Origin: Candidatus Latescibacterota bacterium
Lineage (GTDB): Bacteria > Latescibacterota > UBA2968 > GCA-2709665
Reading direction: 5' to 3'
Length of the DNA stretch: 64,000 nucleotides
Assembly: GCA_965203805.1 (NCBI GenBank)
Contig: OZ241917.1
Coordinates: 2,272,001-2,336,000 of the forward strand
Position numbers and translations under genes: made by a program. The notes below the pieces were generated by a model, which was given only the letters and a program-made list of their open reading frames with translations, did no database searches and had not been told where the DNA came from. This document shows, piece by piece, positions 48,239 to 48,385 of this stretch; the stretch's first letter is position 1; each line of letters opens with the position of its first letter.

Positions 48239-48385
48239 TTACTTCTTTGCCGAAGCGTCGTCAGATGGGTTATTATCTGATCCGTCTGCCCAATTCTCGG
48301 GCCTTTCATCGTCGCCGCGCGACTGCCAATAAGCATCGTTGTTCGGGTTCAACTGATTGGCGCGATTGTCATTGTCGCGATCCAT
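48239..48385 (-). CDS. Asn/Asp-rich micro-protein (48 aa), not in the ORF track
   Basis: AAAGGAGGTG RBS; MDRDNDNRANQLNPNNDAYWQSRGDDERPENWADGSDNNPSDDASAKK. Confidence 0.78.
   Translation of the reverse strand: MDRDNDNRANQLNPNNDAYWQSRGDDERPENWADGSDNNPSDDASAKK

Follow-up and report, generated by a model that had tools for sequence, protein, structure and literature searches.

Background

The locus described here has its nearest described counterparts among the KGG-repeat general-stress proteins, the type II antitoxins and small nuclease inhibitors, the hydrophilins and late embryogenesis abundant (LEA) proteins, and the prokaryotic viperin (pVip) systems. It lies in a stretch of 64,000 nucleotides from a Candidatus Latescibacterota bacterium (NCBI GenBank assembly GCA_965203805.1, contig OZ241917.1, positions 2,272,001 to 2,336,000), which was analyzed as a whole and is called the window below; coordinates are those of the window and (-) marks its reverse strand. 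The subject is a gene of 48 codons (48239..48385, (-)) for an acidic micro-protein of a family that we call NPNN. It is followed by genes for a basic peptide of RGG type and a beta-CASP ribonuclease (RNase), and preceded by a gene for a 596-residue protein.

KGG-repeat proteins (YciG/GsiB type) consist of short hydrophilic repeats and are encoded in small clusters under alternative sigma factors. NPNN proteins would resemble them as short hydrophilic repeat proteins, but the motif is a different one and the 48-residue protein has no KGG match in Pfam at E <= 1. With type II antitoxins and small nuclease inhibitors the locus shares an operon in which a gene for a small acidic protein precedes that of an RNase; the differences are that no consistent pairing with one effector family is observed, that the protein has no DNA-binding domain and that most members of its family have no nuclease neighbour. 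Hydrophilins and LEA proteins, among them the Pfam family SMP (PF04927), are likewise small, very hydrophilic, repeat-forming and stress-linked, and an SMP-like protein replaces or accompanies NPNN proteins. The 48-residue protein, however, matches no LEA or SMP model, is low in glycine and has an unusually strict motif. A literature search on hydrophilins yielded works of a general kind only.

The likeness to pVip systems concerns the effector: it is a clear pVip in 8 of the 19 cassettes found in the phylum, as it is in 15 of the 46 relatives collected from metagenomes, and the viperins of these cassettes are often accompanied by a thymidylate-kinase-like gene. The effector of the window itself, in contrast, is a beta-CASP RNase and no viperin. 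In the parts considered here of an account of bacterial viperins (bioRxiv 10.1101/2023.09.13.557418), kinases are the only linked genes named, and the 596-residue partner, the small-protein slot and the leader RNA do not appear. PADLOC holds no model for the 596-residue partner. Searches of the literature on described pVip systems found no counterpart of the micro-protein, nothing linking viperins with sigma54 or with bacterial enhancer-binding proteins (bEBP), and nothing on pVip together with beta-CASP and small proteins. As far as these searches reach, no earlier description was found of a micro-protein slot in a viperin/RNase/radical-SAM (S-adenosylmethionine) cassette, of the interchange of three protein types in this slot, or of the two RNA elements reported below. 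Proteins of less than 50 residues are routinely missed by annotation, and for the NPNN family, present in hundreds of species, the searches made here found no name, model, structure or paper; a fixed slot in a cassette that switches its effector offers a concrete and testable setting for the function of such a micro-protein.

The 48-codon gene and its family

The open reading frame (ORF) runs over 48 codons from an ATG to a TAA stop codon (48385..48239, (-)). A Shine-Dalgarno sequence, AAAGGAGGTG (48391..48400, (-)), was read from the sequence 5 nt ahead of the ATG; the same box is common to all 19 aligned regions upstream of the small ORF. The ATG is placed five codons ahead of the motif and, together with the strong ribosome-binding site (RBS), defines a stand-alone small ORF. 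The encoded protein is acidic (isoelectric point 4.14, net charge -6.5) and extremely hydrophilic (grand average of hydropathy, GRAVY, -2.16), and the gene is present in one copy in its own genome of 5.87 Mb. The ORF list, the homologues, their invariant residues and a strong excess of synonymous change indicate that this gene, with its single repeat and acidic tail, is a real protein-coding gene, whose translation in vivo we infer.

The family is defined by a core of about 27 residues, DN[RH]ANQ[LM]NPNNDAYWQSRG followed by ..ERP.[DN]W, and the 48-residue protein carries all of the core motif. A word-indexed search of 5.8 billion proteins gave 288 candidate small proteins, 285 of them at E <= 0.01, and the best matches of the 48-residue protein reach an E-value of 6.6e-18. 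With one genome per species, at least 357 NPNN loci were confirmed by tblastn in many phyla; the matches listed include Dehalococcoidia and other Chloroflexota, Pseudomonas, Vibrio, Shewanella, Marinomonas, beta-proteobacteria, Flavobacterium, Planctomycetota, Verrucomicrobiota and others. An alignment of 59 members with a single repeat has eight invariant positions (N7, Q11, N13, A18, W20, R23, P29 and W32), and all eight are present in the 48-residue protein. Over the 27-codon core, the median proportion of synonymous differences (pS) is 0.91 and that of nonsynonymous differences (pN) is 0.128 (3486 pairs from 84 loci, chosen by a regular expression on the first 11 residues, which biases the values in that part), and pN is lower than pS in 3478 of the 3486 pairs. 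The NPNN core is thus under strong purifying selection.

The preliminary description of this DNA had reported a 48-residue ORF with a strong RBS at this place and had assigned its motif to many tiny hypothetical proteins. The ORF list and the reading of the sequence bear out the former, and the motif proves to be real and conserved, with homologues that keep it at the protein level in many phyla and pN far below pS.

Members of the family contain one, two or up to four motif repeats in tandem. In most of 80 loci inspected by eye the motif is preceded, at a distance of a few to about 15 codons, by a start codon, which is ATG or in a few cases TTG or GTG. Among longer relatives (37 matches) most either have several repeats or result from ORF calls that extend too far. 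As judged by eye, a few have apparent membrane anchors or a signal peptide; a GerE domain is assigned to one and DUF4124 to another, and none is an informative fusion. Where NPNN copies are annotated they are called "hypothetical protein", and the others are left uncalled. The 48-residue protein matches no Pfam family at E <= 1, no NCBIfam family and no PADLOC model. A profile search of the PDB with the family returned nothing at E <= 10, the ESM Atlas only unnamed clusters with scores below 0.9, and a literature search on the motif strings found no paper. The 48-codon gene is a new member of an existing, uncharacterised family.

Mobile elements contribute very little to this distribution: none of 50,697 phage records, one locus of IMG/VR and 5 of 72,556 plasmids contain NPNN. 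The family is cellular and not viral. In the phylum of the window it occurs in 12 of 168 genomes, with one copy each, and this patchiness makes the gene an accessory gene there. Nine of the 12 copies are located at the locus of the 596-residue protein.

A cassette with an exchangeable effector

The arrangement around these nine copies is that of a cassette, in the order structured leader RNA, 596-residue protein, hairpin with strong RBS and small hydrophilic protein, and exchangeable effector (genomes compared are designated below by G-numbers and loci by L-numbers). In the window the 596-residue protein, the conserved upstream partner in the cassette and a member of a large unnamed family, is encoded at 48616..50406 (-). 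Homologues were found in 19 of the 168 genomes of the phylum, and in all 19 loci a small hydrophilic gene with the same strong RBS directly follows the 596-residue gene. All 19 loci also contain an effector: a beta-CASP RNase in nine, a pVip in eight and a B12 radical-SAM protein in two. The pVip effectors are recognized by PADLOC with E-values of 6e-93 to 4e-118 and the B12 radical-SAM proteins by Pfam; several of the viperin cassettes also contain the thymidylate-kinase-like gene. The window has the beta-CASP RNase in place of a pVip, and pVip is present in the orthologous cassettes of G001, G030 and G166.

The effector of the window, a beta-CASP metallo-beta-lactamase RNase of 530 residues (46195..47787, (-)), matches the Pfam families Beta-Casp (3.5e-25) and RMMBL (2.8e-15); its nearest NCBIfam models, aCPSF1 and Cas14, are both below their cut-offs. 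Between this gene and the 48-codon gene lies the gene of the RGG peptide (47991..48140, (-)), 49 residues with the signature "..TGN.SGGGR.NAPP..", whose start at MAK is found 8 nt past a GGAGG. The peptide is very basic, with an isoelectric point of 11.8 (computed on a slightly longer frame) and a charge of about +9, and orthologous small genes of RGG type are present at eight other loci of the phylum.

The small-protein slot holds an NPNN type in nine of the 19 loci, an RGG type in nine and an SMP-like protein in two, the window being counted for both NPNN and RGG. The nine NPNN slots include a hybrid (G001) and a case in which the small protein continues into a truncated RNase. Only in this window do NPNN and RGG stand together as separate genes. 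An SMP-like slot protein, that of G142, matches the Pfam family SMP with an E-value of 3.7e-4 and 21.2 bits, against a cut-off of 22. The NPNN type precedes a beta-CASP gene in six loci and a pVip gene in three; the RGG type precedes beta-CASP in four loci, pVip in three and radical-SAM in two. There is no fixed pairing of the type of small protein with the type of effector.

More distant cassettes were found in metagenomes. The family of the 596-residue protein has 451 cluster representatives at E <= 1e-3, and 46 loci with such a gene were collected from metagenome contigs (L122-L167), 36 of them with at least 1 kb of downstream sequence. The next large gene codes for one of the same effectors in 27 of these 36 (viperin in 15, beta-CASP in seven, B12 radical-SAM in five). 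The 596-residue protein with its exchangeable effector looks like an undescribed two-gene module with the architecture of a defence system. In Pfam, NCBIfam and PADLOC the protein itself is without a match. The only PDB entries recovered by a profile search with its family are designed helical repeat proteins, with E-values no better than 0.006, and the ESM Atlas gave weak HEAT-repeat-like matches (0.89 to 0.90), which, with recognition under the mark of the tool, serve as leads only.

Promoter and regulators

A sigma54-type promoter, TGGCATagttcTTGCA (48490..48505, (-)), with a -24 element TGGCAT and a -12 element TTGCA, precedes the 48-codon gene. It is the sole match in the 64-kb window to TGGCAY-N5-TTGCW, which we take to be the sigma54 consensus; 0.09 matches are expected, and at least one is found in 8 of 100 shuffled windows. 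The two elements are correctly spaced, rpoN is encoded in the genome (E 1.1e-58), and a bEBP, a response regulator of NtrC type (Pfam Sigma54_activat, E 3.7e-63), is encoded nearby and upstream at 50641..52047 (-), next to a histidine kinase with tetratricopeptide repeats (TPR) identified by Pfam (52051..53751, (-)). G001 and G003 likewise have the bEBP upstream. An inverted repeat TGGT-N7-ACCA (48578..48592, (-)), which precedes the -24 box by about 85 nt, forms a conserved block in G000, G001 and G003 and is a candidate bEBP site. If transcription starts about 12 nt past the -12 box, the 5' untranslated region (UTR) of the gene is estimated at about 94 nt. The sigma54 dependence of the 48-codon gene is predicted from these signals.

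A terminator-like hairpin with a T-run follows the RNase gene (46071..46091, (-)) and is the likely end of the transcript, which therefore likely comprises the 48-codon gene, the RGG gene and the RNase gene. No RBS-bearing ORF lies between the promoter (48505..48490) and the 48-codon ORF, in agreement with the preliminary description, which had placed this gene first after a sigma54 promoter. It had also proposed a stress-induced context. An inducible or stress-linked gene is what the sigma54-type promoter, the bEBP and the TPR kinase would suggest, and the presence of a protein resembling SMP/LEA in the same slot of relatives fits this proposal further.

Links between the small proteins

The three types of small protein recur together outside the phylum. 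The word-based search with the RGG peptide returned only two proteins, probably through low complexity, so the RGG type was traced with local hidden Markov models. With these, 6 of 76 loci from other phyla proved to have an RGG-type gene immediately adjoining the NPNN gene, in Marinomonas, Vibrio, Azonexus and a genome labelled as Latescibacterota, and an SMP-like gene directly upstream of it in 9 of 76 loci, belonging to beta- and gamma-proteobacteria. An RGG-rich stretch and an NPNN core are joined in a single ORF in G001, of the same genus as the window, and in G122 and G147, some with a tail of GN..PP type; the protein of G127 has two short NPNN repeats and a basic tail of this type. The fusions and the adjacency in other phyla indicate that the NPNN and RGG modules are functionally linked.

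The preliminary description had related the acidic protein to the basic peptide next door through their complementary charges. The functional link between the two is upheld by the six adjacent cases and by the three fusions. Complementarity of charge fares worse: NPNN and RGG are mostly alternatives in one slot, and many NPNN proteins carry basic tails, the acidic tail not being conserved, so that it is at best a local special case.

Interpretation and alternatives

We favour the following reading, to which we give a probability of roughly 0.45, i.e. a little under one half. The 48-codon gene would be the first cistron of a transcript dependent on sigma54 and the bEBP, followed by the RGG peptide, the beta-CASP RNase and a terminator. 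This transcript would be part of a conserved cassette ending in an exchangeable effector directed at nucleic acids, the whole probably forming an inducible defence or stress unit. The micro-protein would be an accessory binding module acting in trans, in cooperation with the RGG-type module and with no dedicated inhibition of the neighbouring enzyme, and would on induction modulate the shut-down carried out by the effector. The absence of pairing with an effector type speaks for an accessory factor and against a specific RNase inhibitor; fusions and adjacency suggest the cooperation with the RGG module; and since the motif is near-invariant across phyla where the lineage-specific neighbours are unrelated, the probable target is a conserved cellular component. 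The term "binding module" is proposed from the conservation of the sequence, and this applies to everything said here on binding.

A bolder version is speculative and, in our estimate, rather improbable. The NPNN, RGG ("TGNPSG..NAPP") and SMP-like proteins would be interchangeable disordered accessory factors acting in trans in an undescribed modular immune system, made of the sensor-like 596-residue protein and the exchangeable effector and controlled by two new structured RNAs. The near-invariant NPNN motif would dock on a universal cellular machine, for instance the ribosome or RNA polymerase, and in this way impose or adjust the shut-down of gene expression during infection. If small proteins do tune such systems, they would form a new layer of small disordered co-factors in bacterial immunity, and a bridge between immunity and the biology of LEA-like stress proteins.

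Several observations weigh against the favoured reading. The sigma54 promoter is specific to the genus: in the phylum it is found only in G000 and in two genomes of the same genus, G001 and, with a weaker form (TTGT), G003; in other phyla none of the 74 NPNN genes considered has it upstream. Elsewhere the NPNN genes mostly lack an adjoining nuclease or viperin, for which reason a general defence role is not established, and in 26 of 75 loci (74 from other genomes, and the window) a protein of about 400 residues is encoded convergently to NPNN. Co-location in islands may reflect shared mobility rather than shared function. Among the 46 metagenome loci of the 596-residue family a small gene intervenes in only three, each time of RGG type and never NPNN. 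The small protein is thus dispensable for the core system; the core unit is the 596-residue protein with its exchangeable effector, and the small-protein slot an addition common in the phylum. Finally, part of the stretch is present in 22 sequencing runs, and contig sets of four were compared: contigs from the one RNA library among them cover parts of the 596-residue gene and leader of a relative and do not convincingly cover the small ORF, although such contigs cannot demonstrate transcription and the uncovered part tells neither for nor against expression.

The alternative that survives best, which we still consider unlikely, is that NPNN, RGG and SMP-like proteins are disordered LEA-like protectants, active in dormancy or under water or temperature stress, which share their regulation and have no specific target. 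The 48-residue protein has the high hydrophilicity of hydrophilins, its relatives have one to four tandem repeats, the slot alternatively holds a protein resembling SMP, and SMP-like genes stand directly upstream of NPNN in the 9 of 76 loci mentioned above. The Pseudomonas members moreover have a conserved upstream box that may resemble a promoter of heat-shock type. A bulk protectant would nevertheless hardly be expected to conserve its motif residue by residue, with eight invariant positions in 59 sequences. Hydrophilins contain more than about 6% glycine, and the 48-residue protein has 2 glycines in 48 residues (4.2%). It has no Pfam LEA or SMP match, the alternative protein does not reach the curated cut-off for SMP, and the recurring context of defence islands would be left unexplained.

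Somewhat less plausible is a direct neutralisation, in which the acidic peptide would bind the basic RGG peptide as an antidote or buffer, or mimic RNA for it. The charges are opposite (-6.5 and about +9), the cistrons are adjacent and both are preceded by a copy of one hairpin and RBS, and NPNN and RGG are neighbours or fused in the loci cited above (6 of 76; G001, G122 and G147). Against it, both are present as separate genes in only one of the 19 loci of the phylum, with RGG alone in eight and with NPNN lacking any RGG module in the protein or the locus in seven. Acidity is not a conserved property either, as the NPNN tails are basic or neutral in G141, G148, G147 and many Dehalococcoidia; and the inclusion of the NPNN core within a basic protein in the fusions is better explained by cooperation in cis.

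We regard as very improbable an antitoxin-like inhibitor, which would hold the beta-CASP RNase inactive until a trigger removes the micro-protein. The small gene is upstream of a nuclease gene in one transcript, and the order NPNN then beta-CASP is found independently in Stutzerimonas (L020). The constant pairing expected of an antitoxin and its toxin is contradicted by the NPNN type before a viperin in three of nine loci and the RGG type before beta-CASP in four. Outside the window's genome, a beta-CASP gene lies within 4.5 kb in only 1 of 74 NPNN loci; the 48-residue protein has no DNA-binding domain in Pfam, and the RGG gene and about 200 nt separate its gene from that of the RNase.

That the micro-protein is the precursor of a ribosomally made modified peptide (RiPP), processed by radical-SAM enzymes of the slot system, is the least probable reading of all. 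In 10 of the 19 loci a small peptide does adjoin a gene for a radical-SAM enzyme (eight pVip, two B12 radical-SAM), but the eight are clear viperins, which modify nucleotides (PADLOC E down to 4e-118), and in nine loci, the window among them, an RNase takes this place. Neither a protease nor a transporter or recognition domain was seen. Conservation extends over the whole core and does not follow the pattern of a leader joined to a variable core, and there are multi-repeat forms and others with apparent membrane anchors.

RNA elements

Each of the two small genes of the window is preceded by a copy of a hairpin with a 20-nt core supported by covariation in the alignment: copy 1 in the 5' UTR of the 48-codon gene (48425..48444, (-)) and copy 2 before the RGG gene (48185..48204, (-)). 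The core has these two occurrences only in the 5.87-Mb genome. In the 19 aligned upstream regions the 13 proposed pairs are paired in 83.7% of cases, and five of them show double compensatory changes; the covariation score is reached by none of 500 shuffles, and slid controls score lower. Copy 2 has the full outer stem. Copy 1 has retained the inner helix, and its outer stem is poorly retained. Folding of the whole UTR gave no significant result (z-scores of -1.64 to +0.84).

The second element is a structured leader before the 596-residue gene (50481..50549, (-)), which forms a three-way junction and has been kept at every one of the 19 loci in the phylum. About 70 nt long, it begins at the predicted transcript start of the promoter-like sequence TTGACG-16-TATATT (50583..50556), and compensatory changes are observed in 6 of its 20 pairs. 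Searched with the surroundings of the 48-codon ORF, with the leader and with the window as a whole, Rfam gave no meaningful match. The leader is a candidate for a new cis-regulatory RNA.

A further hairpin, followed by UUUAAU, lies just upstream of the RNase gene (47817..47833, (-)) and is terminator-like; it could possibly act as an attenuator before the effector. The region to which it belongs (47788..47990, (-)) has a similar sequence in G028, as judged by eye.

A different conserved leader is shared by the RGG and NPNN genes of L064, from a Latescibacterota-labelled genome, and of L114, L120 and L121, from the phylum of the window. Its 3' part and RBS resemble the leader of the RGG gene in the window. 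L114, a contig of 3 kb, appears identical to L064 in the small-ORF translations compared and in a leader stretch of about 136 nt, which suggests a transfer or a mis-binned contig.

Other neighbourhoods and defence context

The convergent proteins of about 400 residues mentioned above occur in alpha-, beta- and gamma-proteobacteria (e.g. L029, at L029:6304-7500:-, L030 and L013). They evolve fast and have no Pfam, NCBIfam or PADLOC match. The same convergent arrangement was seen on a Pseudomonas megaplasmid and on a Cereibacter plasmid. In six Dehalococcoidia loci the NPNN gene has a downstream gene for a helix-turn-helix (HTH)-TPR protein of about 605 residues. The idea that the 596-residue protein, the three BLAST groups of proteins of about 400 residues and the HTH-TPR proteins form one conserved partner family was dropped, no homology being detected: hhalign comparisons among them gave probabilities of at most 2.6%, and hmmsearch gave no match.

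Defence genes recur in these neighbourhoods. In Stutzerimonas, L020:3979-11323 contains, in this order, an integrase, NPNN, a beta-CASP of the subfamily of the window, SIR2 and HerA. PDC-S44, on which a literature search found nothing informative, adjoins four Pseudomonas NPNN loci, and a Type III restriction-modification system adjoins the cassette of G028. In the window, a gene for an SNF2 helicase of 1203 residues with an N-terminal DUF4926 (41796..45756, (-)), which matches BrxHI (E 1.5e-105) and also DrmD models, is located just downstream of the RNase operon, together with a gene for a DUF6883 protein directly upstream of the helicase gene. The stretch from 41.8 to 53.8 kb is flanked by ordinary genes (ThiI, a LysR regulator, inositol-phosphate synthase and an SPFH protein).

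In Pseudomonas and Stutzerimonas (e.g. L029, L036 and L071) a box of the form ..TTTCC-N6-8-..TTCCCTAT was observed about 70-85 nt upstream of the NPNN start. A strict regular expression finds it in 8 of 13 loci, and a near variant was recognized by eye in four of the other five; in 300 kb of Pseudomonas and Stutzerimonas loci, both strands included, it has only nine matches. Recognition by an alternative sigma factor is possible for this box, which may resemble heat-shock promoters.

Variation of the cassette was visible in one of the sequencing runs. A DNA contig of run X11, from a related organism, differs from the window in two replaced regions: 318 other letters stand in place of 48057..48616, a stretch that begins with the promoter and reaches the start of the RGG gene, and 1501 other letters in place of 46173..47784, the region of the RNase gene. 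These replacements, observed on one contig, are consistent with cassette exchange in natural populations.

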